A stretch of DNA of 64,000 nt from positions 1,536,001 to 1,600,000 of the forward strand of contig CBDANS010000007.1 of NCBI GenBank assembly GCA_965197745.1, read 5' to 3'. This document shows positions 4,199 to 48,240 of this stretch, in pieces. Made by a program: the position numbers and the translations under genes. Below the pieces are notes generated by a model, which did no database searches, was not told the origin of the DNA, and saw nothing but the letters and a program-made list of their open reading frames with translations. The DNA comes from Opitutales bacterium. Lineage in GTDB: Bacteria; Verrucomicrobiota; Verrucomicrobiia; Opitutales; PNEW01. Position 1 is the stretch's first letter, and every line of letters begins with the position of its first letter.

Positions 4199-5558
4199 TA
4201 TCATTTCTGAAAAACAAACCCTCGAAGAACGGTATCTGCGGCAGATTTTTATCCGCGATCAGATGACCGAGTTTGTTAAGGAACCATTTGTAATGAGTGG
4301 TTCTGATGGCGTTTATTATACGGATATTGATGGGAAACGCTACCTTGATGGTATTGCAGGAATCTTTGTCGCTTCAGTGGGCCATAATAACCGACGGGTG
4401 ATTGATGCGATAAAAGACCAGTTGGACAAAATGTCTTTTGCCCCGATCATGCACGGAACGAATGCATTAGCGGTTCAATTAGCCAATATGCTGGCAGAAA
4501 TTGCCCCCGGTGATTTAAGTGCGGTAAAATTTTGCAGTGGCGGAGCCGAAGCAAACGAAACCGCTTTTAAAATGGCGCGCCAGTATCATAAACTCAGTGG
4601 AAATCCTAACAAGTATAAGATTATCTCGCGCTACCATTCCTGGCATGGGGGCACAATGGGGTCCTTATCGGCGTCCGGATTAACCTCACGTCGTGTTGAC
4701 TCCGAGCCACTGGCAGCAGGTTTTGTTCATGTCTTTCCTCCTTACTGCTATCGCTGTCCCTTTGGTAAAGAATACCCCAGTTGTAATATTACCTGCGCCG
4801 GACTGATCGAGGACACAATCATTATGGAAGATCCGGATACCGTCGCTGCCGTAATTGTTGAACCGATTGGGCATACCGGTGGCATCATGGATCCTCCACC
4901 AGAGTATCTGCCCCTATTACGCGAATTTTGCGACAGGCATAACGTGCTTCTGATTTTTGATGAAATAATTACCGGGATAGGGCGCACCGGAGAAATGTTC
5001 GCCGCTGATACATTTGGTGTTGTCCCTGATTTGATTTGTTTGGGGAAGGGATTGTCGGGGGGATACATGCCTCTATCCGCGGTTCTTTGTCGAAGACCCA
5101 TCGCTGATAAATTCTGGGGCGATAAGGAAACAAATCCCGGCTTTGTCTCGGGACATACTTATGAAGGTAATCCCATTGCCTGTGCTGCAGGATTGGCGAC
5201 GTTAACGGAAATTATTGAAAAGGATTTATGCGCAAACGCACGTAAGGTGGGCAGCCATTTACGCCAAGGTCTGGAGGGACTTCGCAAGCATGGAATCATC
5301 GGGGACATTCGAGGGAAAGGAATGTTTTTTGGTGTAGAATTTGTCCGTGATCCTGTGACTAAAGAAAAATTCTCAGATGATATTCCGATTTCCACCCTTA
5401 TTGGGAAACGGGCTTTAGCAAAAGGTCTCCTGTTGCGGTATGACCCGCATTGGATGTCATTGGGACCACCCTTAATCCTGACGGAAGAGCAAGCTGATGA
5501 ACTTGTTTCCATTTTAGACGAAAGCATCACCGAAGTGTTGCAGGAAATAAATAATTAG
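4191..5558 (+). CDS. Class III PLP-dependent aminotransferase
   Basis: SGGAEANETAFK, SWHGGT, LLIFDEIITGIGRTG, DLICLGKGLSGG; overlaps the upstream stop (operon). Confidence 0.95.
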   Translation: MSDIISEKQTLEERYLRQIFIRDQMTEFVKEPFVMSGSDGVYYTDIDGKRYLDGIAGIFVASVGHNNRRVIDAIKDQLDKMSFAPIMHGTNALAVQLANMLAEIAPGDLSAVKFCSGGAEANETAFKMARQYHKLSGNPNKYKIISRYHSWHGGTMGSLSASGLTSRRVDSEPLAAGFVHVFPPYCYRCPFGKEYPSCNITCAGLIEDTIIMEDPDTVAAVIVEPIGHTGGIMDPPPEYLPLLREFCDRHNVLLIFDEIITGIGRTGEMFAADTFGVVPDLICLGKGLSGGYMPLSAVLCRRPIADKFWGDKETNPGFVSGHTYEGNPIACAAGLATLTEIIEKDLCANARKVGSHLRQGLEGLRKHGIIGDIRGKGMFFGVEFVRDPVTKEKFSDDIPISTLIGKRALAKGLLLRYDPHWMSLGPPLILTEEQADELVSILDESITEVLQEINN

Positions 5559-5622
5559 AGCGGCAGTCCGACATTTATAAATATCCGGAGGGCGACGGCT
5601 GATCGTGGCCTTAACAACAAAG

Positions 5623-5738
5623 AGGTGGAGCGGGCTGCCTGACGGCCATAGCGTAACACTGCACAGCGACGGCTGTTCCCCAGCACGCTATGTTTAAATA
5701 ATGAATAACGGTTAACGCGCTACAGCACCGCGTTCCAC
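5623..5738. repeat. REP-like inverted pair, family B (GGTGGAGCGGGCTG...CCGCGTTCCAC), with nested hairpin insert
   Basis: Same arms as 6373-6451, 34820-34941, 44126-44280, 51362-51451, 55448-55524. Confidence 0.8.
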
Positions 5739-5754
5739 ATGATATTGATAAATA

Positions 5755-5782
5755 TTTGGAGGGCCACGCTCCGTCGTGGCCG
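5755..5782 (+). repeat. REP-like palindrome, family C (TTTGGAGGGCCACGCTCCGTCGTGGCCG)
   Basis: Internal hairpin GGCCACG/CGTGGCC; copies at 6467-6494 and inverted at 13627-13654. Confidence 0.75.
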
Positions 5783-5875
5783 TAGCGTATTAGTGGAAAC
5801 GGGGCAATTTGCCGCTATGCGTAAGTTCAAATAAATAACAACAAGATGCACAATAGATACAAGCTCATGCCCCTT

Positions 5876-6339
5876 TTGTCATTGCGAGGAGTAATACGAC
5901 GCGGCTACCGAGTTCAGCATCTGCGGGACGACATCTTCCATTCCAGAAATATGGGATTAACCAATATCCCATATAAACCGATTATAAATATGTGCGCACA
6001 ATATATTACGTTTATATCCTCACCAATAAACGTAATGGAACACTTTACACAGGAGTCACTCGCAGTTTATTACGTCGCTTATGGGAGCATAAAAATAAAT
6101 TAAAGGTGGGGTTCACCAAGAATTACGATATTCATAGACTGGTATATCACGAATCCTTTTACGATATTGAAAATGCGATTCTACGTGAAAAGCAAATCAA
6201 AGCCGGTTCGAGAAAAAGGAAAATTGCCTTAATTGAAAAAGAGAACCCTTTTTGGAAAGATCTGAGCCGAGATTGGTATTCGTAAGAACAATGACTATTC
6301 GCCTGGATTGCTTCGTTGCATCACTCCTCGCAATGACAA
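5876..6339 (+). mobile_element. GIY-YIG nuclease cassette bounded by REP-like terminal inverted repeats, copy 1 (464 bp)
   Basis: TTGTCATTGCGAGGAGT (5876-5892) is a perfect inverted repeat of ACTCCTCGCAATGACAA (6323-6339); near-identical inverted copy at 9542-10005; mobility is inferred. Confidence 0.75.
5992..6285 (+). CDS. Small stand-alone GIY-YIG nuclease (UPF0213/YhbQ-like)
   Basis: YYVYIL...LYTGVT...RRLWEHK...AILREKQIK...NPFWKDL; GTG start. Confidence 0.9.
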   Translation: MRTIYYVYILTNKRNGTLYTGVTRSLLRRLWEHKNKLKVGFTKNYDIHRLVYHESFYDIENAILREKQIKAGSRKRKIALIEKENPFWKDLSRDWYS

Positions 6340-6372
6340 GAGTAGAGCAAAAGCGAACACTATAATTTCTCT

Positions 6373-6553
6373 AGGTGGAGCGGGCTGCCCCTAGCACGCT
6401 ATATTTAAATAATGAAGAACCTCAAACGCGGTAGAGACACCGCGTTCCACCCGACATTGATGAAAATTTGGAGGGCCACGCGTCGTCGTGGCCGCGATTC
6501 AAGGTACAGCTTATAATGGAAAATACGCGGACGCGACAACGCGCGTCCCTCCA
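6373..6553. repeat. Composite REP unit: family B pair (6373-6451) plus family C pair (6467-6553)
   Basis: Direct repeat of 5623-5782; inverted homolog including spacer at 13561-13686. Confidence 0.8.
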
Positions 6554-6610
6554 TTATTCTCATGTTCCTATTATCCTGTGTTATCTAGAACAGCCAACCT
6601 GCAAACAGCA

Positions 6611-7444
6611 TTATCGAACAGCGTGTTTGAACAGGGGTTTGGCTTTTTCCGGAAGCTTATCATAAACTTCCAGTGGCATCGGAGGGTATTGGATAACCCT
6701 CTGCTTGGGGTCATCATTAACAATTTTCATTTCTGTCGATCCTGGTATATATATATTCTGGTTCATCCACCAGGGCGCGTAACGGGCAACCATGGAGATA
6801 CGGGGCTCATCCGTTTTATTTGCCCCGCTCGCATGCCACATGCGACTGTCAAAAGCGAGGACGCTACCCTCAGATCCGGTCACCTGTATTTCATCGGGAA
6901 AAGGATCTAAAGTTGGTTCTTCACCATAGGAAGGATTTGTGTCTCGCTTATGGCTGCGCGGCACGAGGTGGGTTCCACCGTTATCCTCCCTAAAGGGGGA
7001 CATCATCCAGATTGTGGTTATGGTCATTAAAATTGTATCAGGGTAGGGGCTTTCAATATGCCCCGCATAGTTTCCTGCGAAAGGTTGATCCCCATGCCAC
7101 TCCCTACGATCACTGCCTGGTATATTATTCGTGGTTGAAGTGGCACAAACGCGAAAATGAGGGCCGAATAAATTTTCTATCAAGGAGGTCATTCTGGAAT
7201 CAGCGAGATATTCGGCAAAGGACGGAATATAATTTATGGAAGATGCGCAATATAAGGTATATCCGTTAGTAACTCGGGTGAACGGTTTGTTTTCGGGTTC
7301 ACCCTGTCCGATCGTGATCAGTTCGTCTCTAATAGGAGCTATGCGATCTTCTGGTACTACATCCTCGATTATACACCAACCCTCTTCACGTATCTCTGAT
7401 GCCAATGACTCCGTTGATTTTACCTCTTGAATATTAGAACTCAT
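6611..7444 (-). CDS. PhyH-family dioxygenase
   Basis: GWCIIEDV, WHGD, NGGTHLVPRSH, FDSRMWHASGAN...R. Confidence 0.85.
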   Translation of the reverse strand: MSSNIQEVKSTESLASEIREEGWCIIEDVVPEDRIAPIRDELITIGQGEPENKPFTRVTNGYTLYCASSINYIPSFAEYLADSRMTSLIENLFGPHFRVCATSTTNNIPGSDRREWHGDQPFAGNYAGHIESPYPDTILMTITTIWMMSPFREDNGGTHLVPRSHKRDTNPSYGEEPTLDPFPDEIQVTGSEGSVLAFDSRMWHASGANKTDEPRISMVARYAPWWMNQNIYIPGSTEMKIVNDDPKQRVIQYPPMPLEVYDKLPEKAKPLFKHAVR

Positions 7445-7563
7445 TGCTGGTTATTAAATTAATAATGAAAAATATTAGATCAAGAAATATTCAGAAAAAA
7501 TATATTTCTTTAAGGAGTAAAATATGAGATCGACTATTTATAATTTAAATACATAATGAATAA

Positions 7564-7581
7564 TGAGGGTTATTACCCTCA
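7564..7581. promoter_or_regulatory. Putative operator palindrome TGAGGGT-N4-ACCCTCA upstream of a pilin-like gene
   Basis: Perfect 7-bp inverted repeat about 25 bp before the start codon at 7606. Confidence 0.4.
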
Positions 7582-7605
7582 ATTCGAATATAATACCATC
7601 TAGAT

Positions 7606-8079
7606 ATGCATACTAAGAAAATATCGGGGCTTTCGGGTTTTACTTTGGTTGAGGTCATGATCGTGGTTGTGATTATTGGTCTCCTTGCCTCGTTTGCGAT
7701 ACCCGCTTTTAATAGAACGAGGATCGAATCGAGGGGCACGGCGTTCACCAATGACTTGCGTATATTTGCCGACGCTGCAGATACTTATATGCTGGAAACC
7801 GGCGACTACCTGGAAGATTCCGGTAGTGGGCAATTGCCTACGGGGTGGGATAATTATGTTCAGGTGGATAAATGGACGGGTGGTACCCCCATCGGTGGAG
7901 TCTGGGACATGGAATTGGATTCATTTGGATTCAAAGCTGGATTGGGTGTTCATGGGCCTGATTTTACGGTCCAGCAAATGCAAAGTATCGATGATCGGTA
8001 CGATGATGGTGACCTCAATACTGGAAAATTTCGCCGCATTGCGGCCGACCGTTACTATTTTATCCTCGAGGATACCTGA
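7606..8079 (+). CDS. Type IV pilin / type II secretion pseudopilin-like protein
   Basis: GFTLVEVMIVVVIIGLLA N-methylation motif; C-terminal IDDRYDDGDLNTGKF shared with paralogs. Confidence 0.85.
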   Translation: MHTKKISGLSGFTLVEVMIVVVIIGLLASFAIPAFNRTRIESRGTAFTNDLRIFADAADTYMLETGDYLEDSGSGQLPTGWDNYVQVDKWTGGTPIGGVWDMELDSFGFKAGLGVHGPDFTVQQMQSIDDRYDDGDLNTGKFRRIAADRYYFILEDT

Positions 8080-8188
8080 TAACCGTTAGGAATCACTTCG
8101 TTTGTTTTGCCCATCAGGCAATAAATGCTTGTCCCACACCCAGGGGATCGCAGGATGGCCATGAATACAGTTAAACAAGTATAATCTA

Positions 8189-9439
8189 ATGCCAACTCCC
8201 GGGGACAACTTCACTGAAATTAGTGCCTATCTTGGCAGGCAAGAAGGCACGCTGATTAAATTTCTTCAAGGTCTGATACGAATGCCAACCGTAAATCCCC
8301 CCGGTGATTGCTATACAAATTGCGTAACGGTTCTTGAAAAAAAACTTCATGCCATTGGGATGAAAACCCAGGTCATTCGTGTGCCCTCGATTAAGCAGAG
8401 AAAAGTGACTCTTGACTTCATGAAGTATCCCCGGTTTAACTTGATTGGGAGATGGAATACCGGGGCCACGAAAACACTACACTTTAATGCTCATTATGAT
8501 GTGGTCCCTGTCTCTGGTAATTGGAAATATGGGCCATTTGAACCGAGGGTAAAAGACGGGTGGATTTATGGGCGGGGGTCAGCGGATATGAAAGGCGCCA
8601 TAGCCGCCTGTTGTCTTGCCATTCAAGCCATGAAGCGATGCAGGAGAATTCCAGGGGTCAATGTCGAGGTGTCCTTCACTGCGGATGAAGAAACAGGGGG
8701 CGAATTAGGAGCCGGGTATATAGTCCAGGAAAAGCTGGTAAATCCTGATTATGCGGTGGTGTGTGAGGGCGGCAGTGGAAGAACTGTCGGTTGCGGTCAT
8801 AATGGGGTTCTCTGGTTGGAGTCGATGATAACCGGGAAATCCGCGCATGCCGCGCACCCGCATAATGGAATTAATGCTTTTGAAAACATGTCAGCGCTGG
8901 TCGTAAAATTACACCGGTGGAAAAAAATCCTGCAAAAACGCAGCTTCGTCGGTCCCAATGGAAATAAAAAGCATCCCACCATTAACATAGGAGGCGTATT
9001 CGGGGTTGGTTCAGGGGCGAAAGTAAATACGGTACCTTCTCACGCGAGTTTCACTATTGATAGACGCATTATTCCCAGTGATTCATTTCGCGAATCGGAA
9101 AGAGAAATTAAAAGTGTGATCAATGAAGCCAAAAGGCAGATACCGGATCTTCGCGTGAAAACATCACGCCTTTTAGCCATTAAACCCTGTCTCGTTGATC
9201 ACGAAAGTTACTTTCCCCAAACGGTTGCCCATGCGGTCCGTTCTGTCCTTGGTGGCCGTACTCAATTTGGGGTATGTGACGGGTTTACCGATATGAACCG
9301 CTTTGTTACAGGTAAAATTCCGACCGTGGGCTATGGTCCTGGGGGTAAGAATATTCACAGTGTCGACGAGCGCGCAAAAGTGCGTGATATACTGCAAACG
9401 GCCAGGGTTTATGCAAAACTGATGCTCTCACTTAAATAG
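8189..9439 (+). CDS. M20-family metallopeptidase (ArgE/DapE-like)
   Basis: TVNPPG, FNAHYDVV, YGRGSADMKG, DEETGG, GPG...HSVDE. Confidence 0.92.
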   Translation: MPTPGDNFTEISAYLGRQEGTLIKFLQGLIRMPTVNPPGDCYTNCVTVLEKKLHAIGMKTQVIRVPSIKQRKVTLDFMKYPRFNLIGRWNTGATKTLHFNAHYDVVPVSGNWKYGPFEPRVKDGWIYGRGSADMKGAIAACCLAIQAMKRCRRIPGVNVEVSFTADEETGGELGAGYIVQEKLVNPDYAVVCEGGSGRTVGCGHNGVLWLESMITGKSAHAAHPHNGINAFENMSALVVKLHRWKKILQKRSFVGPNGNKKHPTINIGGVFGVGSGAKVNTVPSHASFTIDRRIIPSDSFRESEREIKSVINEAKRQIPDLRVKTSRLLAIKPCLVDHESYFPQTVAHAVRSVLGGRTQFGVCDGFTDMNRFVTGKIPTVGYGPGGKNIHSVDERAKVRDILQTARVYAKLMLSLK

Positions 9440-9541
9440 GGTGAGGGCGACGGCTGATCGTGGCCGTAACGAATAAGTTGGGTCGGAGCAATTTACCACC
9501 GTGTGTAAGTTCAAAAAAATAGCTACAAGCTAATGCACCTC

Positions 9542-10005
9542 TTGTCATTGCGAGGAGTGATGCAACGAAGCAATCCAGGCGAATAGTCATTGTTCTTACG
9601 AATACCAATCTCGGCTCAGATCTTTCCAAAAAGGGTTCTCTTTTTCAATTAAGGCAATTTTCCTTTTTCTCGAACCGGCTTTGATTTGCTTTTCACGTAG
9701 AATCGCATTTTCAATATCGTAAAAGGATTCGTGATATACCAGTCTATGAATATCGTAATTCTTGGTGAACCCCACCTTTAATTTATTTTTATGCTCCCAT
9801 AAGCGACGTAATAAACTGCGAGTGACTCCTGTGTAAAGTGTTCCATTACGTTTATTGGTGAGGATATAAACGTAATATATTTTGCGCACATATTTATAAT
9901 CGGTTTATATGGGATATTGGTTAATTCGATATTTCTGGAATGGAAGATGTCGTCCCGCAGATGCTGAACTCGGTAGCCGCGTCACGATGCTCCTCGCAAT
10001 GACAA
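9542..10005 (-). mobile_element. GIY-YIG nuclease cassette bounded by REP-like terminal inverted repeats, copy 2 (464 bp)
   Basis: CTCTTGTCATTGCGAGGAG (9539-9557) and CTCCTCGCAATGACAAGAG (9990-10008) form a perfect 19-bp IR; interior is the near-exact reverse complement of 5876-6339. Confidence 0.75.
9596..9889 (-). CDS. Small stand-alone GIY-YIG nuclease (copy 2)
   Basis: Identical to 5992-6285 except residue 3 (K vs T). Confidence 0.9.
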   Translation of the reverse strand: MRKIYYVYILTNKRNGTLYTGVTRSLLRRLWEHKNKLKVGFTKNYDIHRLVYHESFYDIENAILREKQIKAGSRKRKIALIEKENPFWKDLSRDWYS

Positions 10006-10130
10006 GAGTAAGCAAATGCGATCAGCTAACTTCATTACCGCGGGACGACGGCTGATCGTGGTCGTTTCTAAGTTACCTGGTCCCTAATGCCTTTTAGTGG
10101 GGTCGATTTAATAAGCTCAAGTTAATTGAA

Positions 10131-10937
10131 TCAATTTAACCCTCTATAAATATCCCTAATATAGCTTTCTGTTTTCGCCTTATGATGATTCTCGGCAGTA
10201 TTAATACCCGATTTTATTTTATTCAGAGAAATTATCATTTCATCGAAAGTTTTTTGAGCTTCAGCGATACCCGACCCCTCCTGTTCCTGAATTAATTGCC
10301 GGTAATAGGACCCCAGTTTTAACTGGGGGAGAGAAATTTCATGATATGGGGTGCCACGGACCAGTGTATTGTGATTTCTCGTTAGGGAGTTAAAAATTTG
10401 TTCTTCATCTTCTACAGCCTCAGCGGACCTGAATGCTTTGTCTATTTCCCGTTGTGCCGTATCTGAAAACTCCTGATTCTCGCTATCGTAGGCGGCGGTC
10501 ATCGTATTTCTCGCACTGCCTATATATTGGCTTAAATATTTTATTTTAGTCCTGATACTATTGAAGCTTTCATTGACATCAGTATAAATCACTTCGATCG
10601 CTTCCCCTTTTTGAAATGATTCATCAGACTTGGCTAAAGCCATCTCTATTTCGAGATCGATTCGTTTTCTCAGGTTTCTGGCCTTCCTGATAATCGTAGC
10701 AAGTATCCTTTTTTCTTCCCTAAGCTGTCGCTTGAGTTCTTCGATATTCCCATCCTTATTCTTCCTGGATTTTGATTTGCCAAGCAATAATTCAAGTATG
10801 GTGTACGAAGTTTCTGACTTTTGTAGATGAAGGTTCAAACCCTCTATAGCCTGAATCTGCATCTCCCTGGCCATATTAAGCTTAGATCGTTCACTGATAA
10901 GCGATCTGATATCATCTGGAATGGTTAAAGTATTCAT
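10131..10937 (-). CDS. Hypothetical alpha-helical/coiled-coil protein
   Basis: 268-aa AT-rich ORF, charged and helical composition, no recognised motif. Confidence 0.6.
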   Translation of the reverse strand: MNTLTIPDDIRSLISERSKLNMAREMQIQAIEGLNLHLQKSETSYTILELLLGKSKSRKNKDGNIEELKRQLREEKRILATIIRKARNLRKRIDLEIEMALAKSDESFQKGEAIEVIYTDVNESFNSIRTKIKYLSQYIGSARNTMTAAYDSENQEFSDTAQREIDKAFRSAEAVEDEEQIFNSLTRNHNTLVRGTPYHEISLPQLKLGSYYRQLIQEQEGSGIAEAQKTFDEMIISLNKIKSGINTAENHHKAKTESYIRDIYRGLN

Positions 10938-11100
10938 TAATATAAATCCCTGACCCGTTCAATAATGGTAATATTACGGCCGTCTGATACTCCAGTGAAA
11001 GTTAGTAAAGTATTTTATTTTTGTAAGTAAAAAATACTTAAAAACTACGTCAAGTTTTCTTGAATATTATATTACTAGTGCAGTCGTCAAAATGACTGAT

Positions 11101-28307: not shown

Positions 28308-28415
28308 TTGTCATCGCGAGGCTGCTTGTCGGCCGTGGCGATCCAGTGGAATTTCGATCAACTATTGACAGCCCCCTGGACTGCCGCAGTCGGCACACCT
28401 CCTTCGCAATGACAA
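28308..28415. repeat. Gene-less REP pair of the GIY-YIG-cassette family (family A), 108 bp
   Basis: TTGTCATCGCGAGG...GCGATCCAG-spacer-CTGGACTGC...CGCAATGACAA. Confidence 0.8.
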
Positions 28416-29251: not shown

Positions 29252-29469
29252 GTTTCAGGTGTCGGGGTTCAGGGTGGAAGATGTCGGGCTACGCCCTCGG
29301 TACAGGATGCACATAACGACGCCGATTATATAATGGAAAAGATTGAATGCCAATAAAGTTGAGAAAAGTATTATCTGTCAGGATCCATCCGCATATACGC
29401 ATTTACACTTATTCACTTTCTCGCATTTCCCTTTTGACTTTTTGATCTTTTGACTTTTTGACTCAACAA

Positions 29470-30285
29470 ATGACTGAAGAACAAAAGTTCTTTTTTGATC
29501 TCCGGGGGTGGATTCTTTTACCTGCCGTGTTATCGTCAGCCGAGATTGATGGGATGAAGAAAGAGGTGTATGATGGCGCTAAGAATGGTTATGAAGGATT
29601 ACTTCAGAAGTTGCTCGACCATCCGGCCGTCGTGGGTATTCTGACCGAGCTTCTTGCGGAGCCCTCTTTTGTTTCGAACGATTACTATAGCTTCCGATGT
29701 GAGAATTCGTTTGTCTTGAACCGCCCTCCCGGATGGAGAATAAGCGATAAAGCTAATTCTGGTGGTACCGGTATGCCTCATGTTGTGCGTCCTCCACAAC
29801 AGGCGAACGCCATGCGGTACCAGGTACAAGGGGATAAAATTTTTGCAGGGTTGACCCGCGTAGTCTGGGAGCTTGAAGAGGTGAAAGCGGGACAAGGGGG
29901 AACCACCTTCCTCAGCGGATCACACAAAGCTCATTTCAACTATGGTGGACCCGACCCGTATAGACCCAATGTCAGTGAGTCGCCCTGGGAAGAAAGCATT
30001 CGTGAGACCATGGAGGATTACAGTTGTCCTGCCGGATCTGCCATCGTATTCACGGAAAGCCTGATCCATGCCGCCAATGATTGGACCAATCCCAATAACT
30101 CGCGCTGCGCGGTATTCAATTGTTACAACTCTCTCTGGGCTCAATGGCACCTGCTCAATCTGGACCATAAGATTATCGAAAACATGCCCGTAAAACGACG
30201 GTCCCTCTTTCGAGGCACCTGGGAACTGGGAGAATTAAATGGCAGTCGCAATCACGGATATGCGGCAAATAATAGATCGCTGTGA
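29470..30285 (+). CDS. PhyH-like dioxygenase (divergent)
   Basis: MTEEQKFFFDLRGW, GGTTFLSGSHK, FTESLIHA; paralog at 63778. Confidence 0.75.
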   Translation: MTEEQKFFFDLRGWILLPAVLSSAEIDGMKKEVYDGAKNGYEGLLQKLLDHPAVVGILTELLAEPSFVSNDYYSFRCENSFVLNRPPGWRISDKANSGGTGMPHVVRPPQQANAMRYQVQGDKIFAGLTRVVWELEEVKAGQGGTTFLSGSHKAHFNYGGPDPYRPNVSESPWEESIRETMEDYSCPAGSAIVFTESLIHAANDWTNPNNSRCAVFNCYNSLWAQWHLLNLDHKIIENMPVKRRSLFRGTWELGELNGSRNHGYAANNRSL

Positions 30286-30519
30286 TGGGAGCGTTGAAGC
30301 GCGAAGCGCATCAGCGCGTGTTAAGTTTTAAAGTGTTAGGTTTTAGGAAAGAGGATACAAGGTTCGGGAAAACATAGTTGCTACCATTAGGATCAATCGA
30401 CAATCGAAAACCCCTACGAAATTTACAGACTGAAATAAAATGTAATCGCCATCACAGTTATTCGGTAAATAATATCAGCTCTCCTTCGATTCCCGTAACA
30501 CTAACAAACAGGACAGATA

Positions 30520-31518
30520 ATGAAAATAGTACCCATACGACGGATCATAATTCTTACAATAAAGGGTATTTTATTTATTTCGGCTCCTCCTTGTATTGCG
30601 AAGGATCTGACGATTTCTAAAGAGTCGGACGAAACAAGTTCATCTTCATCGCACAACGCTGTCGTCCACGACTCGATTGAAATAGACGGTGTCGATATAT
30701 TCTACCGTGAAGCCGGACCGAGAGATGCACCAACGCTCTTTCTGTTGCATGGTTACCCGACTTCATCCCATATGTTTCGCAATCTGATGCGTGACCTCGC
30801 CGACAAATTCCATACCCTCGCGCCTGATTATCCTGGCTTTGGTCGTAGCGAGCAGCCGCCGATGGCCGATTTCGAATACACCTTTGATCATATGGCTGAA
30901 CTGATGAAGAAATTTCTCAAAGCAAAAGGCGCTGATAAATTCAGCATCTATCTTATGGATTACGGGGCACCCATCGGTTACCGTATCGCCGTCAAGCAGC
31001 CGAAGCGCATCCAAGGTCTCATCATCCAAAATGGCTGCGCTTACGAAGAAGGTTTACTCGAGTTCTGGGACCCAATCAGAAAGTACTGGAATAACAAGAC
31101 TGCTGAGAACGGTAAAGCGCTTGAAGGCTTTCATTCACTCGAAGGCCTTAAATGGCAATACACCCACGGCACGGGATCCCGCCAGAATCAAGTTAGCCCC
31201 GACAATTGGGAGATTGATTTGCGTCATTTAACCCGCCCGGAGAATAATGAAATTCAACTCGCCATGTTCTACGACTATCAGAATAACGTGCCACTTTATC
31301 CAAAATTTCAGTCCTACTTCCGCAAACGTCAACCACCAACTCTGATTGTTTATGGAAAGAATGATCACATTTTCCCTGAGGCTGGCGCGCATGCTTATAA
31401 AAAGGATCTAAAGAATATTGACTTTAATCTATTTGATACAGGTCACTTTGCTCTTGAAACTCATGGCAGAGAAATAGCCCTTTTAATTCGCAAGTTCTTG
31501 AGCAAACAGGGAAAGTAG
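30520..31518 (+). CDS. Alpha/beta hydrolase (epoxide hydrolase-like)
   Basis: FYREAG, LLHGYPTSSHMFR, APDYPGFG, MDYGAP, GHFALE. Confidence 0.92.
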   Translation: MKIVPIRRIIILTIKGILFISAPPCIAKDLTISKESDETSSSSSHNAVVHDSIEIDGVDIFYREAGPRDAPTLFLLHGYPTSSHMFRNLMRDLADKFHTLAPDYPGFGRSEQPPMADFEYTFDHMAELMKKFLKAKGADKFSIYLMDYGAPIGYRIAVKQPKRIQGLIIQNGCAYEEGLLEFWDPIRKYWNNKTAENGKALEGFHSLEGLKWQYTHGTGSRQNQVSPDNWEIDLRHLTRPENNEIQLAMFYDYQNNVPLYPKFQSYFRKRQPPTLIVYGKNDHIFPEAGAHAYKKDLKNIDFNLFDTGHFALETHGREIALLIRKFLSKQGK

Positions 31519-31662
31519 AAATAAATTCCCAATGAGTAATAGGGTAACGCTGGATCTCATTTCACCTACGCCCAAGTTAGGCAGGTTCCGAAGTTCAAGA
31601 AATGATAATTATCACCCTCCGTATCAATCGACAATCGAAAATCGCAAATCGAAAATTGTAGA

Positions 31663-32559
31663 ATGCCTGTATTAAGCGAAGAAGATCGAGCGTTTTGGGA
31701 TGAGAACGGTTACGTCATCATTCATGACGCGGTTCCTCCAGAATACATCAAAGCTACTCAGGATGAAGTTTGGAATTTTTTGGAAATGCAGCCCGACGAT
31801 CGGGAGAGTTGGTATCCTGACCCGCCTCGACCGGGCCTAGGGGTGAAGATGCATCATCACTAGGTTTTGTGGAACAACCGTCAATACCCCCGCGTGCATC
31901 AGGCTTTTTCGGAGATCTGGGGAACAGAGAAGTTGTGGGTAAGTTTTGATCAGTGCAGCATGAGCCCCCCGCTCCGCGAGCACTTGAATGATGGCGGGAA
32001 ATTGCATTGGGATACCCCTTTAGAACCGCCTATTCCGTTTTGTTGTCAGGGTGTGCTCTACCTGACAGACACAGAAGCGGAGCAGGGAGCGTTTACCTGC
32101 GTGCCGGGGTTCCATCTAAAACTCGAAGCATGGTTGGAGTCCTTGCCACCGCACGCTGATCCGCGAAAGCAGGATCTGATGAGCCTCGGAGCGATACCAG
32201 TAGCAGGTAAAGCTGGAGATCTCATTATCTGGCATCATTTACTCCCTCATGGAGCGGGAAAGAATACTGCGGACCAACCACGGGTGGTACAGTACATCTC
32301 CATGTTCCCGGCTCATGGAAAGGACGAGGATTTTGTAAATTATCGCATCAAAGCATGGAAAAATCGACTGGCCGGCGGGGGGCATTCCGGCAGTAGGGTA
32401 GAGTTGAAAAAAGGAAAGGAATTTGAAAAAGGTCAGACCGCTAAATTGTCACCGTTAGGACGAAAATTGTTGGGATTGGATTCGTGGGAGAGCGCTTACG
32501 CGCGTCAAAAAGTCAAAAAGTTGAAGGCGAAGGAGAGATCAGTGAACGGTGAACGGTAA
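31663..32559 (+). pseudogene. PhyH-family dioxygenase with in-frame TAG at 31861-31863
   Basis: Paralogs have CAG (HQALW) at this codon; both halves are in one frame and otherwise intact (LHWD, IWHHLLPHG). Confidence 0.8.
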
Positions 32560-32687
32560 TCAGTAAACGGTAAACAGTGAATAGTGCTGTCGCTTGTGTT
32601 AAGTTCTAAACATGGTTCATTTAGGTGGAACGTGCTGTCCCTATTTATAAAATCGACAATCGCAAATCGCAAATCGACAATTGAAAT

Positions 32688-33619
32688 GTGTCCGTATTAA
32701 GCGAAGAAGACCGAGCGTTTTGGAATGAGAATGGATACATTGTCATTCATGATGCTGTTTCTCGGGAAAATATAAAAGCTGCGGAGGATGCTATATGGAA
32801 TTTTTTGGGAATGCGACCCGACAACCAGGAGAGTTGGTACCCCGACCCCCCACGGCGGGGGATCATGGCTGAAATGTATCAGCACCAGGCATTATGGGAC
32901 AATCGTCAGTACCCCCGCGTGCATCAAGCCTTTGCGGAGGTCCTGGGAATGGAACAGTTGTGGGTGAGTATTGACCGCGTCAGCATGAGTCCACCGGAAC
33001 GCACCCCCCCCCCAATGATACCTCGTCAAAACAACCCATTCCATTGCACTGGGATTACGTTTTACAACTCCATGGGGATGGGAAACCCACGCTTATGGAA
33101 GGCAGTCTTGAACGGCCTCTTCCGTTTTGGGTGCAGGGTGTGCTCTACCTGACAGACACCGTGGAGAATGGGGGAGCGTTCACCAGTGTGCCGGGATTTC
33201 ATCGGGAAATTGAAGGGTGGTTGGAAACCCTGCCGCAAGTGGCCGACCCACGTAAGCGAGATGAAAGCGGTGGCGTCTTTTTAAACTACGATGCGTGGTT
33301 GGAGACTTTGCCAGCGAATGATGATTCGAGTGTGCAAGCCATAATTGATAGGGGCACAAAACCTGTTCCCGCTAAAGCCGGGGATCTTATTATCTGGCAC
33401 AGTTCACTCCCTCACGGGGCCAGCTATAATACTGCAAACCATCCACGTGTGGTGCAGTACATGACCATGTTCCCGGCGCAGGAAAATGATGATACTGCCC
33501 GCAATCGTCGGATCAAAGTATGGCAAAATGGCATGGCAGCTGAGGGACATTCAATGGATCATTCCGCAGAGCTTTCACCGTTAGGGCGAAAACTGCTGGG
33601 TCTAGACAGGTGGGATTAG
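32688..33619 (+). pseudogene. PhyH-family dioxygenase frameshifted in a C10 run (33004-33013)
   Basis: C11 or C8 restores DTSSKQPIPLHWD as in paralog 33817-34692. Confidence 0.8.
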
Positions 33620-33642
33620 CTGACTCGCAATGCGCATCCGCT

Positions 33643-33742
33643 AGTTTTAGGTTTTAAGTGTTAGGAAAATGATCGTCATAAAGAATCTTATAATAATAGT
33701 TTCTGACTAAAACTTAAAACCTAACACTTAACACTTAACACG
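33643..33742. repeat. Convergent 7-bp tandem arrays (GTKTTAR / YTAAMAC)
   Basis: gttttaggttttaagtgttagg ... aacttaaaacctaacacttaacacttaacac; similar arrays near 30319, 36076-36142, 44367, 48266, 55408. Confidence 0.7.
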
Positions 33743-33816
33743 CGACGGTGAAATTCCTACCCGCTTTTTAATTGTTCAATAAACTGAATTATTATGTTAA
33801 ATCATAGGAGCTCATA

Positions 33817-34692
33817 ATGCCCGTATTAAGCAAAGAAGATCGAGCGTTTTGGGAGGAGAACGGCTACGTTGTCATCCATGATGCGGTTCCCCCGGAAAAT
33901 ATTAAAGCGGCCGAAGATGCGGTTTGGGATTTTTTGGAAATGCAGCCCGACAACCCAGATAGTTGGTACCCCGACCCGCCTCGGAAGAACATCACTATGG
34001 AGATGTACCATCACCAGGCATTGTGGGACAATCGTCAATATCCCCGCATGCATCAAGCCTTTGTGGAGATCTGGGAAACGGAGCGGTTGTGGGTAAGTAT
34101 TGACCGCGCAAGCATGAGCCCACCGGACCGCACATCCCCGAAAGAAGCTGGGAAATCAAAAGGTGATACCTCTTCAAAACAACCAATTCCGTTGCATTGG
34201 GATATCGCTATAGAACCACCTATACCGTTTTGTGTTCAGGGGGTGCTCTATCTGACGGACACAGCAGCGGATGGAGGAGCGTTTACCTGTGTGCCGGGGT
34301 TCCATCGAAAACTCGAAGCGTGGTTGGCGAACTTGCCGGCGGATGCCGATCCGCGTAAGCAGGATCTGATGAGTCTGGGTGCAACACCGATTCCAGGTAA
34401 AGCCGGTGATCTCATCATCTGGCATAGTTCTCTGCCTCACGGGGCAGGTCTTAATACAGCAAGGTATCCACGGGTCGTGCAGTACATCACCATGTTCCCG
34501 GTGCAGGAAAAAGACGAAAATATTCTAACTCATCGCGTTAACGCATGGCGAAATAACCTGGCAGGTTTGATCGTCGAAGGCACTGGCAGGAATTGGGAAT
34601 TACGTAAGGAAAAGGAACATGCTATTGGTCAAACCGCGGTGCTGTCACCGTTAGGGAGAAAGCTGCTGGGGTTGGATTCGTGGGAGCGCTAG
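33817..34692 (+). CDS. PhyH-family dioxygenase
   Basis: FWEENGYVVIHDAV, LHWD, QGVLYLTD, IWHSSLPHG. Confidence 0.9.
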   Translation: MPVLSKEDRAFWEENGYVVIHDAVPPENIKAAEDAVWDFLEMQPDNPDSWYPDPPRKNITMEMYHHQALWDNRQYPRMHQAFVEIWETERLWVSIDRASMSPPDRTSPKEAGKSKGDTSSKQPIPLHWDIAIEPPIPFCVQGVLYLTDTAADGGAFTCVPGFHRKLEAWLANLPADADPRKQDLMSLGATPIPGKAGDLIIWHSSLPHGAGLNTARYPRVVQYITMFPVQEKDENILTHRVNAWRNNLAGLIVEGTGRNWELRKEKEHAIGQTAVLSPLGRKLLGLDSWER

Positions 34693-34819
34693 CGCGCGTC
34701 AAAAGGTCAAAAAGTTGAAGACGGGGGAATCAGTGAACAGCCGCCGTCGCTTCGCTATGGCGTGCCAAGGTGAACGGTGATAAGCGCTGATGCGCGTGTT
34801 AAATTTTAATCATTATTCA

Positions 34820-34941
34820 AATAGGTGGAACGCGGTGCCTGTCCGATATAGTCCCGCTACCGCGGGACGACGGCTGATCCCAACCGCGTTTGTATATATT
34901 ATTAATAAAGAAGTGCGCTGAAACAGCCCGCTCCACCTATT
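34820..34941. repeat. Family B REP pair (reverse orientation) with nested module
   Basis: AATAGGTGGAACGCGGTGCC...CAGCCCGCTCCACCTATT. Confidence 0.75.
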
Positions 34942-35054
34942 CTTAGTTAATCATTTTAGTTTCTTGCATCCTGAACTCTCAACCTTGAACCTTCCAATGA
35001 AAATGGAAAAATGATGGATAATGAAAACGACGATACATTAATAAAGGAGTTAAT

Positions 35055-35957
35055 ATGGATAAACTAAAAATTTTGATTGTCCATGCCCATCCAGCTGATT
35101 TTGCCTGTGATGCTTCTGCAACTATAGCCTTGCATTCAGAAAGAGGTGATAAAGTAACTAGCTTAGTGGTTTCTCATGGTGAAAGACACCATATGCTATG
35201 GATTCATGATCAGGAGACTAAACCTGTAGAAAAACAAGATCCCGATTTTAAAAATCTAAATATAGATAACTATCGGGAATTCAAAAAACGTGAGACCGAA
35301 CGCATCGCCTCTATCCTCGGAGTGGATGAATTGTTAATGCTGGGATGGACCGACAGCGAAATATATTTTGATCATGACAAAGTTGAACAAATATCTGAGA
35401 TAATTAGAAAAGTTAAACCAGACATATTTATAACCAGATTGCCAAATGTCCCTTACCTCTATTCAACGCATAACGATCATCCTGAAACGGCAAGGATAGC
35501 GATGAAAGCTCTCCGGCATGCCGAAGAGAGAGTTAGACAATTTGACGGAGTTGATGCCTATAGAGGTGTGAAGCAAGTTTTTCATTCGCTTGCAGGAGGG
35601 GAGGAAGTTAATTCTAATCATATGTTACTACCAGGAATTACTCCAGATGTTTGGATCGATACCACATCGGTTATAGAGAAAAAAGTGCAAGCTATTGACC
35701 AGTTAGTGAGCCAGGGATATAAGGGTAAATTTGCCAGGCGGGTTGTTGAAGCTAGAGATGGAAGGTGGGGGATGATAGCGGGAACCGCCTATGCTGAACC
35801 ATTTGTAAGACCAACCGGGTTGATTTATAACAGTCTGCCTTTACCCTCAAGCGCTATTAAAGATGCCCATAAACCGACAATTGACCATAGCGGAAAGACA
35901 TCAGTTCACAAAATACCTTCAGTAACTCCGAAGGCAGCTTATAAGCTTAAACTTTAA
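35055..35957 (+). CDS. PIG-L/LmbE family protein (GalB 4-oxalomesaconate hydratase-like)
   Basis: HAHPADF, SHGER, IIRKVKPDIFIT, HNDH, YAEPF. Confidence 0.8.
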   Translation: MDKLKILIVHAHPADFACDASATIALHSERGDKVTSLVVSHGERHHMLWIHDQETKPVEKQDPDFKNLNIDNYREFKKRETERIASILGVDELLMLGWTDSEIYFDHDKVEQISEIIRKVKPDIFITRLPNVPYLYSTHNDHPETARIAMKALRHAEERVRQFDGVDAYRGVKQVFHSLAGGEEVNSNHMLLPGITPDVWIDTTSVIEKKVQAIDQLVSQGYKGKFARRVVEARDGRWGMIAGTAYAEPFVRPTGLIYNSLPLPSSAIKDAHKPTIDHSGKTSVHKIPSVTPKAAYKLKL

Positions 35958-36028
35958 CTGTATGGTTCAGTTTCCCTTTTTCCCCATTAGAGGTTATGGA
36001 TATATATGAAGCCATGCAGCGACCCCCG

Positions 36029-36055
36029 CTGGGATTGGACAGTTGGGAGAGCTGA
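36029..36055 (+). pseudogene. Orphan 3' tail of a PhyH paralog (LGLDSWES*)
   Basis: ctgggattggacagttgggagagctga matches the C-terminal LGLDSWE motif of the 31663, 33817 and 38062 paralogs. Confidence 0.55.
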
Positions 36056-36202
36056 TGCGCTTTGCGTGTAAGCTCGTTTTAGGTGTTAAGTTTTAAGTGT
36101 TAAGTAAAATCAACCTAAAACATAACACATAAAACTTAACACGCGCTTGCGCCCGCGTTATCCTTGACACTCTACGGTCGTTGCTAATTAAGATCGCAAC
36201 CG

Positions 36203-37045
36203 ATGTTAAAGCGCAGGAAAGGGTACTTGAAGCCGCGGAAAGGCCGCGTTCCTAAGGCAAGTCGTCAGCTGGAGGACGAGGGTTACACCATTTTACATAA
36301 GGTGCTTAGCAAGGAGGAGGTCGATGACCTCGCACGGGAAATCAATGAGGTTTATGATAAGCTTCCACCCGATGGACGAGTAAGCCTTGGTCTTTTGGAA
36401 GAGGACAGAGCTTTCCGTTATGAAATGTTTAATCGCAGTGCCTTGTGCCAGGAAGTTGTCGCCCATCCGAAGATCCTGAAGACCATTGAACCACTGTTGG
36501 GCGAAGATTGTCACATTATTGCGAACACCAGCTGGCGCAATCCGCCCGATTCCGATCCTGAACATAAGGGCGGAGTCTGGCATATAGACGGAGGTCCCCA
36601 TATTCCGCTCGATGACGATCAGGTATGGCCGAGCAACATACCTCACCCGGTTTTTGCCATCGGCACCCATATTTTTCTAACAGACTGTCCCATGGATTGT
36701 GGCCCCACGGGCGTAATTCCGGGCAGCCATCTTTCGGGCAAACCGGCACCGCTCAATCATGACATGTTGCTGACCTGGAACAATGTTTCGGTAAAGCCCC
36801 TTCCTGCCAAAGCGGGCGATGTCGCGATGTTCGTCTCAGATATTTGGCACAGACGGATGCCAACATCCGATGAAGATAGTGGCCGATTCTTTCTGCAAGT
36901 GCATTACGCGCGAAGAGACATAGCGCAGCGATTAAGGCGGACAGCTGAGGTTAATCATGTCTCGCCACAAGCCATCGCGCGCATCAAAAGTGATCGTGAA
37001 AAAGCATTACTCGGTTTGCATCCCCCGAAATTCTATGACGGCTAA
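36203..37045 (+). CDS. PhyH-family dioxygenase
   Basis: LEDEGYTIL, WHID, GPTGVIPGSH, DIWHRR. Confidence 0.85.
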   Translation: MLKRRKGYLKPRKGRVPKASRQLEDEGYTILHKVLSKEEVDDLAREINEVYDKLPPDGRVSLGLLEEDRAFRYEMFNRSALCQEVVAHPKILKTIEPLLGEDCHIIANTSWRNPPDSDPEHKGGVWHIDGGPHIPLDDDQVWPSNIPHPVFAIGTHIFLTDCPMDCGPTGVIPGSHLSGKPAPLNHDMLLTWNNVSVKPLPAKAGDVAMFVSDIWHRRMPTSDEDSGRFFLQVHYARRDIAQRLRRTAEVNHVSPQAIARIKSDREKALLGLHPPKFYDG

Positions 37046-37096
37046 GAAATGCAAAAGGGTTAATACCCAGAACTTAGAAATAATTAAATTAATCAC

Positions 37097-37855
37097 ATGG
37101 AATTAAAAGGAAAAGCAGCATTAATTACAGGCGGCAACAGCGGAATCGGTGAAGCTATCGCATACGCCTTGGCGGAAAAGGGAACAGAAGTATTGATAAG
37201 CGGCCGACGGGAAGAACAGAACCGCGCGGTTGCTGAAGCGATCAGTAAAAAAACCGAGACCCGGGTAGAAGCGGTAACCGCCGATGTCAGCATTGAGGAA
37301 GATTGTGAAATGATGGTTCGCCGAACGATTGAACTATTCGGAAAAATCGATATCTGTGTTAATAGTGCGGGGGTCTCAACGGGACCCCAGTTTTCGGAGC
37401 TTTCCACCGAAGTCTTTGATCAGGTACTTAAAACCAATTTATACGGAGCATTCTGGTGTTCACGAGCCGCATTTAACGCGATGCGTAAGAATAAACTGAG
37501 TTCTCCGGATGATATTCGTGGTTATATCATAAACATTTCATCGGTTGTAGGACTGGAAGCTTACGCGCGAAGTGGGACTGGGAGTGGCGTTTACAGCGCT
37601 TCCAAATTCGGCATGATGTCGCTCAACCAGGGCATGTCTGGCTCGGGGCAGAAGGAGTTGATAAAAGTTACCGCGATATGCCCCGCTATGGTCTCTACGC
37701 CAATGACTGAAGAATGGCGAAGCAACAATAGCAAAGAAGGTGATGAATTTATTGAACCCGAAGATGTAGCCGAAACAGTGCTTTACCTCATGCGCCTCTC
37801 ACGTGCAGTCTGGCCCGTGCAGGAAGTTTTGCCCAGACGTGAAGATGAGTGTTGA
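37097..37855 (+). CDS. SDR oxidoreductase
   Basis: TGGNSGIG, INISS, YSASK. Confidence 0.92.
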   Translation: MELKGKAALITGGNSGIGEAIAYALAEKGTEVLISGRREEQNRAVAEAISKKTETRVEAVTADVSIEEDCEMMVRRTIELFGKIDICVNSAGVSTGPQFSELSTEVFDQVLKTNLYGAFWCSRAAFNAMRKNKLSSPDDIRGYIINISSVVGLEAYARSGTGSGVYSASKFGMMSLNQGMSGSGQKELIKVTAICPAMVSTPMTEEWRSNNSKEGDEFIEPEDVAETVLYLMRLSRAVWPVQEVLPRREDEC

Positions 37856-37906
37856 GAGATTTGCGATATTCGAATGCCAATTTTCGATTGAGTTATTACT
37901 CTCTTC

Positions 37907-38014
37907 TTGTCATTGTGAAGGAGGCGATAGCCGACTGCGGCAATCCAGGGGAATGTCTGTTGCGAAATGTAATTTCCCTGGATTGCCGCGTCGCGTTGCT
38001 CCTCGCAATGACAA
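37907..38014. repeat. Gene-less family A REP pair, 108 bp
   Basis: TTGTCATTGTGAAGGAG...GCAATCCAG-spacer-CTGGATTGC...CTCCTCGCAATGACAA. Confidence 0.85.
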
Positions 38015-38061
38015 TTGAAATTGATGTATTCTCCATCTAAGATTTAATAGTGGAACAAAGT

Positions 38062-38955: not shown

Positions 38956-39046
38956 AGCGCTTTGCGCAGCAGTTAGTTTTAGGTTGAAAGAAGTATTATC
39001 CGCCAGGATCAATCGAAATTCGCAAATCGCAAATCGACAATGGCTA

Positions 39047-40498: not shown

Positions 40499-40684
40499 TC
40501 GTGTGTCCTCTCATTTGTATTCATTTTGGAAAAATCCTCCTTTTTCAACAGGAGATGACGCATTGATTCCTATCACAAGAAAATTTTCAACCTATTGCCC
40601 CTTCAATTACAAAAAGATCGGTATGACCCCTTTTGAATTTGCCTGTAGAGTGAAAACTTAAATATTATGATGAGGAGTAGCTAA

Positions 40685-41437: not shown

Positions 41438-41475
41438 GCTAATGAATAGATAAGAGAGTCGTGTGGAGTCGCTAA

Positions 41476-42252: not shown

Positions 42253-42419
42253 ACAAGCAGGACAGGTCCTTCGGCGATGCTCAGGGCAGGCAGGTGTCGG
42301 GTGTCGGAATAGATATATAAGATGGACAATGAAAACGACCATCAATAGCGTGGATGGGAATGGGGATTTTATTTAAATCCATGCACGCATAATTTTACAC
42401 ATAAGATAAAAATGGAAGG

Positions 42420-43196: not shown

Positions 43197-43269
43197 AAAG
43201 TTTTGACCAGCTTAGTGAAGGTATTAATATTCGTAATCTCTAATTCCCACTCTCAAGTTAACTAATATT

Positions 43270-48073: not shown

Positions 48074-48240
48074 TGTGATTGCGGATTGAGGATTACAGAA
48101 TGCGTAGCGACGACACTACCGAACGCAGCGACATCTTCCATTCCAGGGGTTTACCGGTCACGTATTGACATCCCTCTGGAATGGAAGATGTCGGGCTGTA
48201 ACCCTCGGTAGCTTCGTCGCGTTGCTCCTCGCAATGACAA
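48074..48240. repeat. Gene-less family A element with extended arms (TACCGA...GACATCTTCCATTCCAG), left end degenerate
   Basis: cgacatcttccattccag-spacer-ctggaatggaagatgtcg...ctcggtagcttcgtcgcgttgctcctcgcaatgacaa; the extended arm matches the 5' arm of the GIY-YIG cassette. Confidence 0.8.

Follow-up and report, generated by a model that had tools for sequence, protein, structure and literature searches.

Two inverted cassettes of a small GIY-YIG nuclease gene and its repeat arms in an Opitutales genome resemble the Ssn system

Can a gene that encodes nothing beyond a GIY-YIG nuclease domain be the driving member of a family of inverted repeats? The question is raised by a 64,000-nt stretch of an Opitutales bacterium (Verrucomicrobiota; GenBank assembly GCA_965197745.1, contig CBDANS010000007.1, positions 1,536,001 to 1,600,000 of the forward strand), hereafter the window, in which a first-pass annotation had pointed out two inverted units of this kind. 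It had read them as candidate autonomous elements in which the small nuclease occupies the position that RAYT transposases take among repetitive extragenic palindromic (REP) sequences, an anatomy that our analysis bears out. We followed up this proposal in the 4.45-Mb genome (7 contigs, with positions given as C4, C5, C6 and C7; positions without such a label are those of the window), in related genomes and in public sequencing runs. On balance, the evidence leans toward a combined reading in which each unit is a complete Ssn-type cassette that spreads by nuclease-driven copying through repair. The association of such genes with repeats and the analogy to RAYT and insertion sequences (IS) have themselves been in print since March 2025 (PMC11893778).

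Both units extend over 470 nt, cassette 1 at 5873-6342 (+) and cassette 2 at 9539-10008 (-), and an inverted-repeat search pairs them as arms that are 98% complementary, with 3196 nt between them; 461 of the 470 bases of cassette 1 are identical to the reverse complement of cassette 2. As first described, each full-length unit holds a single intact 97-aa open reading frame (ORF) between repeats, at 5992-6285 (+), where it begins with a GTG start, and at 9596-9889 (-). The two proteins differ solely at residue 3, with T in the first and K in the second, which agrees with the earlier count of one residue. The inverted ends of both units start with TTGTCATTGCGAGGAG. A perfect terminal inverted repeat of 17-19 bp had been proposed for both, and this holds for unit 2, where it is 19 nt long (CTCTTGTCATTGCGAGGAG), whereas that of unit 1 carries one mismatch (CTTTTG...). 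The duplication is not an assembly artefact, because Logan contigs from four public runs in three studies bridge all four cassette junctions, with 5623-6357 covered by one such contig, and no RNA run was listed among the public runs holding the sequence; mis-assembly, which the first-pass annotation had named as a possible undoing of its proposal, is therefore rejected. It had also stated that the window lacks other mobility genes, and indeed none of the 58 window ORFs of at least 90 aa matches a transposase, integrase or reverse transcriptase family. The coding content of the cassette is the GIY-YIG protein only, with no cognate DDE, serine or tyrosine transposase.

The encoded protein is very probably a member of the Ssn family, an assignment made by proxy through homologs in genomes that bear NTS, the repeat of the published system. 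In Neisseria meningitidis, SsnA (CDD cd10448) comprises 94 aa and a single GIY-YIG domain; it binds NTS (CGTCATTCCCGCGMAVGCGGGAATCYRG) as single-stranded DNA (ssDNA) only, and its cut falls a few nucleotides upstream of the repeat (Chenal et al. 2025, PMC11893778). Its gene is flanked by NTS, and homologs across bacteria are flanked by related repeats termed SRM (PMC11893778). Both window proteins match Pfam family GIY-YIG PF01541 only, over residues 5-77 at E 3.2e-13, and residues Y8, Y19, R29, H33 and E66 are invariant in the homolog alignment. Three observations carry the assignment: (I) apart from the Neisseria genomes treated below, all five genomes in which the exact NTS consensus was located hold homologs of the window protein (5/5, E 1e-22 to 6e-29), to which it is 48-60% identical; (II) the homolog at locus L234, 54% identical, has an exact NTS 58 nt upstream and another ~40 nt downstream, facing inward; and (III) the spacing of Y8, Y19 and E66 (11 and 47 residues) is that of Y6, Y17 and E64, the residues that were mutated in SsnA (PMC11893778). 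The sole match among solved structures is the UPF0213 protein BH0048 (1zg2, E 1.5e-5). The window protein had no match in representative genomes of N. lactamica and N. mucosa, which yielded only a YhbQ-like 91-aa gene and uvrC, and no GIY gene lies inside locus L111, where two inverted NTS stand ~440 bp apart.

The repeats that enclose the gene are oriented arms, and both cassette ends open with TTGTCATTGCGAGG, reading inward. The downstream arm, short type A, measures ~37 nt and consists of TTGTCATTGCGAGG, a variable stretch and ACGAAGCAATCCAG; it lies at 6303-6339 in cassette 1, on the minus strand, where it reads TTGTCATTGCGAGGAGTGATGCAACGAAGCAATCCAG, and at 9542-9578 (+) in cassette 2. The upstream arm, long type B, measures 72 nt (5875-5946, +; 9935-10006, -) and is built as type A plus TACCGAG-hairpin-GACATCTTCCAT, which replaces the AA of GCAATCC, such that cassette 1 reads TTGTCATTGCGAGG, variable part, ACGCGGC, nested module, TCCAG. 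The arms of roughly 35 bp that had been described as palindromic are not good palindromes, since pairing in the window arms is limited to a 5-bp basal stem, ATTGC/GCAAT, and the upstream arm is longer and contains the nested module. This basal stem covaries, GTCA-TTGC occurring with GCAA-TCY and GTCA-TCGC with GCGA-TCY, at a ratio of concordant to discordant copies of 80:1 in this genome, 304:6 in the 80 homolog loci introduced below and 46:0 in the loci of the related genome G015. In other copies across the genome, the variable stretch is itself a clear hairpin whose two sides change together (CCCGCA..TGCGGG, CCTGCA..TGCAGG, GGCT..AGCC). The repeat can thus be divided into a 5' tag, (T/C)GTCATT, the 5-bp basal stem, a freely varying apical part and a 3' tag, AATCCAG. 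The apical variation fits the published system, in which the loop sequence of the repeat is dispensable and extendable (PMC11893778).

The nested module occupies 5906-5941 (+) in cassette 1 and 9940-9975 in cassette 2, and it can be seen as an insert in a pair of paralogous arms that are identical in their outer flanks and variable parts, C6:595857 being empty and C6:596296 filled. By a rough pattern that leaves 22 arms unclassified, the type B build is present in 38 of the 116 arms of the genome. The 10-mer of the module, GGAAGATGTC, has 78 genome copies with only 34 of them within arms, and the module is therefore a separate small repeat that nests in the arm. Its size ranges from 25 to 36 nt, and stand-alone copies, such as that at 63729-63763, often lie between short direct repeats of the flank. 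No second Ssn gene that would match the nested module was found in the genome; the remaining small GIY-YIG genes are of another subfamily and lie next to direct repeats or tRNA genes. These UPF0213/Slx1-like genes are C7:1846203-1846346 and C5:56623-56832, with a further one in the related genome G012 (C9:55168-55377); one of the three lies between a duplicated tRNA 5' half and the intact tRNA, and the other two are framed by direct repeats of ~100-110 nt, the G012 copy being beside a tRNA gene. Within the cassette, a promoter and terminator scan of 5560-6620 found nothing above chance, and a 9-bp palindrome at 5949-5957/5966-5974, considered as an operator, was dropped as it is not kept in cassette 2 or in the related genome G002.

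In this genome at least 116 arms make up a family, of which the cassette is the full-length representative. Copies of the 11-mer core GTCATTGCGAG number 116, against 2 for a reversed control, and a 13-mer with at most one mismatch has 156 matches against 2 in the control. The prevailing arrangement is the inward-facing doublet: neighboring cores less than 1 kb apart form 26 inward-facing pairs, 7 outward-facing pairs and 3 pairs on the same strand. Most inward pairs are short, with 22 spanning 54-345 bp, and the four that span 436-464 bp are the two window cassettes and two copies whose genes are broken, by an in-frame stop at C7:483586-483876 and by a frameshift and stops at C6:787861-788152. 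Fragments of the gene are also present at C4:88626-88751 and C7:595729-595806.

Many of the gene-less pairs match the unit at both ends and at positions 346-444 (blastn), a segment in which the final 68 nt of the gene are contained; C6:1092544-1092765 and C6:1095668-1095890, for instance, are 85-88% identical to the unit. In addition, 10 loci beside arms translate to remnants of residues ~77-97, with E-values that are weak when taken alone. Doublets that keep both ends together with the 3' end of the gene are what an origin by internal deletion would be expected to leave, and they look like derivatives of the full cassette. Three further gene-less doublets lie in the window: an intergenic doublet at 28309-28414 with ends TGTCATCGCGAGG and TGTCATTGCGAAG, a second intergenic doublet of ~106 bp at 37908-38013 with two inward type A arms, and a doublet of two type B arms at 48101-48239 with a degenerate left terminal core.

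The link between gene and repeat extends well beyond this genome. We examined the best 80 of 572 confirmed relatives of the protein, a set that is skewed toward similar sequences. Inward-facing copies of the exact 11-mer lie within 250 bp on both sides of the gene at 37 of these loci and on one side or both at 68, so that the predicted preference of homologs for flanking repeats is found. These 80 loci span Opitutales, Patescibacteria, Cyanobacteria, Chloroflexota, Bacteroidota and several proteobacterial classes. In a set of 41 relatives, five genomes carry 56-166 cores and the other 36 carry 0-4, and four of the five repeat-rich genomes (G000, G001, G002 and G015) hold a homolog at E<1e-30. 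An evenly drawn set of 151 genomes from the phylum has three repeat-rich members with at least 20 cores (G000, G012 and G186), and in the same sample homologs at E<=1e-10 are found in G000, G186, G091 and G152. Related genomes are not independent, and the lineages with both gene and repeats span at least three families (f1, f13 and f23). Copy number follows the gene in most repeat-rich genomes, as had been anticipated, and the tracking is strong but not absolute, with three exceptions to which we return when the mobile reading is weighed. Thiohalobacter has two paralogs, one with the GTCATTGCGAG-class repeat and one with the CGTCATCCCCGCG type, which fits co-evolving enzyme-repeat pairs.

Two homolog loci show other arrangements. 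In G015 (C1:6638-9862, L253), a 65%-identical gene lies inside tandem arrays of ~112-bp doublets, in each of which a GTCATTGC...GCAATC arm is paired with a GTCATCGC...GCGATC arm. At G186:C20:20560-20885, two cores that face outward flank a homolog of likewise 65% identity, only 10-20 nt away from the ends of the gene; this is the reverse of the inward arrangement in the window.

The GTCATTGC...GCAATC class of repeat, with its interrupted stem, went unrecognized in the published survey. That survey found SRM near 71% of homologs (PMC11893778). Its SRM pattern, HGTCWYN(0-2)YYVSBRHN(0-5)WNVSBRGN(0-2)RNCYNB, which is a search device and not a definition of the Ssn family, matches our genome 16 times against 19 for the reversed control, and none of the matches falls on the core. 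Supplementary Data 4 of the paper lists Pelotomaculum terephthalicicum JT and Mastigocoleus testarum with an ssnA/cd10448 homolog and SRM enrichments of 1.6- and 1.2-fold, and gives 0.64 for Lacunisphaera limnophila and 0.59 for Opitutus terrae (PMC11893778). The former two genomes hold close homologs of the window protein, and in Pelotomaculum (L041) the exact core stands on both sides of the homolog. Together, the failure of the pattern on the core and the low enrichment in genomes with close homologs lead us to conclude that this class was missed. The exact core is absent from 13 of the 14 supplementary files of the paper (file 14 was not searched), and a literature search conducted mainly on result listings turned up neither Ssn-driven mobility nor the present variant of the repeat. 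The published counts of the Ssn-repeat association are probably underestimates, because the GTCATTGCGAG class accompanies the nearest Ssn homologs in many phyla yet escapes the published pattern.

Do the cassettes move? Comparison was made with two genomes of the same family but another genus, G001 (L013, the nearest relative) and G002, at 77-89% DNA identity. Both preserve the gene order around the cassettes, and the three genes that separate the window cassettes are not inverted there. Neither position is occupied by a cassette in G001, while in G002 a cassette that is 85% identical and has two type A arms stands at position 1 only. Within the window, near-identity does end at the repeats, as first noted, but the flanks are not unrelated: the ~100 nt to the left of both cassettes on the + strand (5749-5872 and 9433-9538) are paralogous in the same orientation, with 77/103 identical bases and a last 80 nt that is unique to these two places of the genome, and the ~26 nt to the right of both are also similar. 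The cassettes are thus 98% alike but lie in opposite orientation relative to left flanks that are 75% alike. A comparable flip is seen at the gene-less doublet C6:705902-706145, which matches its G001 ortholog at 83.8% as the reverse complement and at 65.1% in the same orientation, although its right flank matches G001 in the same orientation (39/43); elements are present at this locus in all three genomes, with differing arm types. Both the flank paralogy and the flip at C6:705902 speak for replacement or inversion between arms as opposed to a cut-and-paste process.

These observations can be brought together in a mechanism modeled on the SsnA enzymes (PMC11893778). The protein would bind the folded arm in ssDNA only and nick a few nucleotides 5' of the tag, which would place the cut at the outer border of the cassette, a few nucleotides outside TTGTCATT, and once per strand because the arms are inverted. 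Such nicks would be made when DNA is single-stranded, during replication, repair or uptake, and might trigger copying, replacement or inversion between arm-bearing sites through repair synthesis or recombination. Spread would then be homing-like, by copying through repair and not by cut-and-paste, and a model of this kind would explain why cassettes that are 98% alike stand beside flanks that are 75% alike. A host-level role as in Neisseria, where incoming repeat-bearing ssDNA is cut, may coexist with it. We regard mobility driven by the nuclease as plausible; taken by itself, nuclease-driven spread comes somewhat short of an even chance. Tentatively, we put forward the more specific proposal, still doubtful, that the Ssn cassette is a self-propagating element of ~460 bp, whose GIY-YIG single-strand nuclease nicks its own folded ends and whose content is copied, replaced or flipped by repair.

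A number of results weigh against a mobile cassette. No clean filled/empty pair with exact borders was obtained, since the intergenic DNA at both positions has been replaced wholesale in the relatives, and therefore no border or target duplication can be read from them. No target-site duplication is visible at either cassette, and the bases at the ends (CCC/CTTTTG...CAAGAG/TAG for cassette 1 and TTA/CTCTTG...CAAGAG/GTG for cassette 2) include no direct repeat. The location of one G001 cassette is no simple insertion but a breakpoint of rearrangement when compared with G002 and G000: in G002 its flanks are inverted and separated by 5 kb, and in G000 they are split between two contigs. Contigs of public runs, which are blind to rare variants, contain no cassette-less form and no joint that skips exactly one cassette, only short-sided joints attributable to other repeat families. 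Simple excision is in any case not expected, as inverted arms offer one cleavable site per strand. The arms show no replication-strand bias (56 vs 60 overall, 23 vs 25 for solo arms), which gives no indication of a mechanism confined to lagging-strand ssDNA, as in IS200/IS605. When folded as DNA, the four window arm strands are no stabler than shuffles (z +0.09 to +1.74), although the covariation described above shows that the basal stem is real despite the weak predicted fold. Finally, the assembly of G012, with its 56 cores, contains no GIY-YIG gene closer than a distant one from another subfamily, although several of its contigs end in the repeat and a repeat-flanked gene could be unassembled, and G091 and G152 hold homologs yet only 3 and 0 cores.

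The rival that best survives these points is a domesticated host system, in which the nuclease would cut incoming or exposed repeat-bearing ssDNA and tune recombination or transformation, with the repeats as maintained marks. The cassette would then not move itself, and its two copies, losses and flips would arise from ordinary recombination between abundant repeats. SsnA does lower transformation by repeat-bearing DNA, the incoming ssDNA being cut, and this modulation, not transposition, is the sole Ssn role that the paper shows by experiment (PMC11893778). Its Discussion likens NTS-ssnA-NTS to an insertion sequence, to IS200/IS605 and to REPs, and suggests domestication (PMC11893778). The lack of a target duplication or clean empty site and the presence of arms at synteny breakpoints agree with this rival, as do the intergenic position of the repeats in the window and the count of just two intact genes for more than 100 arms. 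It accounts less well for the gene-less doublets with the 3' end of the gene and for the decayed genes, which resemble the life cycle of a selfish element, and for cassettes that are so much more alike than their related flanks. The distribution is also patchy, with 3 of the 151 phylum genomes repeat-rich, and the near-identical core beside homologs in many phyla suggests joint horizontal spread of gene and repeat. We therefore judge domestication to be rather unlikely as the whole explanation, and the copy-by-repair cassette remains our preferred reading.

A second rival has the repeats moved by another enzyme, a single Y1/IS200-like protein or an IS transposase, with the GIY-YIG gene as a passenger. 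The genome does encode one PF01797 (Y1) protein, at C6:163380-163706, and the many repeats of G012 without a close homolog would be in keeping with such an enzyme. Yet this lone Y1 gene has no core within 1.5 kb, so that a RAYT with the same flanking repeats, which the first-pass annotation had named as a finding that would count against it, was not found elsewhere in the genome. The adjacency of gene and repeat in 68 of the 80 closest homologs, across many phyla and together with the canonical NTS at L234, is far too consistent for a passenger, and in vitro the repeats that SsnA proteins bind, and next to which they cut, are their own (PMC11893778). A passenger gene is accordingly improbable. 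That the arms are mainly RNA elements (terminators, stabilizers or small RNAs) whose inverted layout is incidental can hardly be credited: their intergenic positions, a stem covariation compatible with RNA and the RNA roles proposed for many REPs (PMC3733652) speak for it, but no Rfam family matched 5000-11000 at E<=1, the doublets are symmetric with no preferred strand, SsnA did not bind RNA in vitro (PMC11893778), and the tight link to a nuclease gene would go unexplained.

CGTC/TGTC-tagged hairpin repeats are widespread, and the 2025 Ssn paper gave them a cognate nuclease while leaving open whether the two form a mobile unit (PMC11893778). The present locus contributes a repeat variant, a series within one genome that runs from intact cassette through decayed gene to gene-less doublet, presence and absence at shared loci, an in-place inversion and a nested second hairpin module. 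If the self-propagating cassette is real, the gene-less doublets would be its non-autonomous derivatives, the TGTC-tagged hairpin modules, both nested in arms and scattered, might be processed by the same chemistry, and the cassette would be a self-propagating element of a kind without prior demonstration in bacteria. Two arms, known borders and three candidate catalytic residues provide substrates for asking whether Ssn drives DNA rearrangement, and the distinct arm is a new candidate specificity for the ssDNA-cutting tools proposed by the authors of the Ssn study (PMC11893778).

Several other features of the region are recorded here. A second, unrelated repeat family surrounds cassette 1 (5623-5790 and 6373-6494, with further copies at 5578-5622, 9433-9477 and 10031-10075); it reads GGTGGAGCGGGCTGCC ... 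CCTAGCACGC ... AACGCGGTAGnGACACCGCGTTCCACC ... GGAGGGCCACG...CGTGGCC, parts of it reach ~100 genome copies, and the family is frequent in G001 and G002 too, taking up the 'empty' position 1 there. On C6, two segments of ~2 kb, 706313-708336 (L241:5813-7836) and 714857-717268, are 96-97% identical to G001 or G002 while their neighbor genes are only 82-89% identical, and in G001 one of them has a different location. Lying next to repeat doublets, they may be the product of recent transfer or a mobile segment. Close by, C6:717592-719811 (L241:17092-19311) encodes a 739-aa secreted-looking protein and abuts a repeat doublet at one end; its DNA has more than 80 matches at 75-82% in G001 and G002 and the protein therefore belongs to a very large paralog family. 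The 64-kb window also contains at least 14 paralogs of the PhyH type (phytanoyl-CoA dioxygenase family), at 494-1306, 6611-7444, 29458-44121 and 47231-48073, among sulfatase genes, SSF symporter-Kelch fusions, M20 peptidases and pseudopilin-like genes. A sodium:solute symporter gene appears to be split into the overlapping ORFs 60077-60829 and 60781-61659, which correspond to the first and second halves of Pfam SSF, possibly through a frameshift.

How do the cassettes compare with known systems? REP repeats and their doublets, the REPINs, are paired with RAYT transposases of the HUH Y1 type. The present family is like them in its short structured repeats arranged as inverted doublets, in the one or few small nuclease genes that these flank and in the many gene-less copies. 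It differs in its enzyme, which is GIY-YIG and not HUH, in its tag, which is TGTC and not GTAG, and in that the only PF01797 gene of the genome is not flanked by the repeats; a REPIN-RAYT assignment was consequently set aside, inverted doublets being present (26 inward) and flanking of a Y1 gene absent. Another comparison is offered by the CGTC-tagged REPs, which are palindromic with an unpaired (C/T)GTC tag at one end and often occur as pairs of opposite orientation (Di Nocera 2013, PMC3733652). At the level of the abstract, these are stated to be without a dedicated transposase (PMC3733652), whereas here a dedicated nuclease gene sits between two repeats.

Hairpin ends that are recognized in ssDNA by a very small enzyme are shared with TnpA of IS200/IS605. 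The ends of IS200/IS605 are asymmetric and both on one strand, however, while the arms here are inverted with one cleavable site per strand, and the two systems further differ in enzyme fold and in the lack of replication-strand bias here. The cassettes do have the terminal inverted repeats of a miniature inverted-repeat transposable element or a classical IS, but neither the target-site duplication nor the cognate transposase, and this assignment was likewise rejected. In homing enzymes, DNA is bound by a domain of its own, and the targets that are cut are double-stranded alleles without the intron or gene. With the GIY-YIG homing endonucleases (I-TevI, Seg), the window protein shares its catalytic domain and, as proposed here, a spread through nuclease-stimulated repair; it differs in being a bare 97-aa domain, in its intergenic position and in a likely site at the element's own ends. 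Membership in this group was rejected on the missing DNA-binding domain, the intergenic position and a score of 20.4 bits against a cut-off of 56 for the group I intron endonuclease family TIGR01453 of NCBIfam.

The Ssn/NTS system remains for comparison. Here the stem is interrupted, with a 5-bp basal stem and a variable apical part, which is unlike NTS, and the upstream arm contains a nested second hairpin module, unlike published Ssn repeats. The tags are TGTCATT...AATCCAG here and CGTCATT...AATCYRG in NTS, with a paired stem in both. Common to the two are a single-domain GIY-YIG protein of less than 100 aa, the same Tyr-Tyr-Glu spacing and a gene between inverted copies of an oriented repeat that is present in ~100 or more, mostly intergenic, copies.

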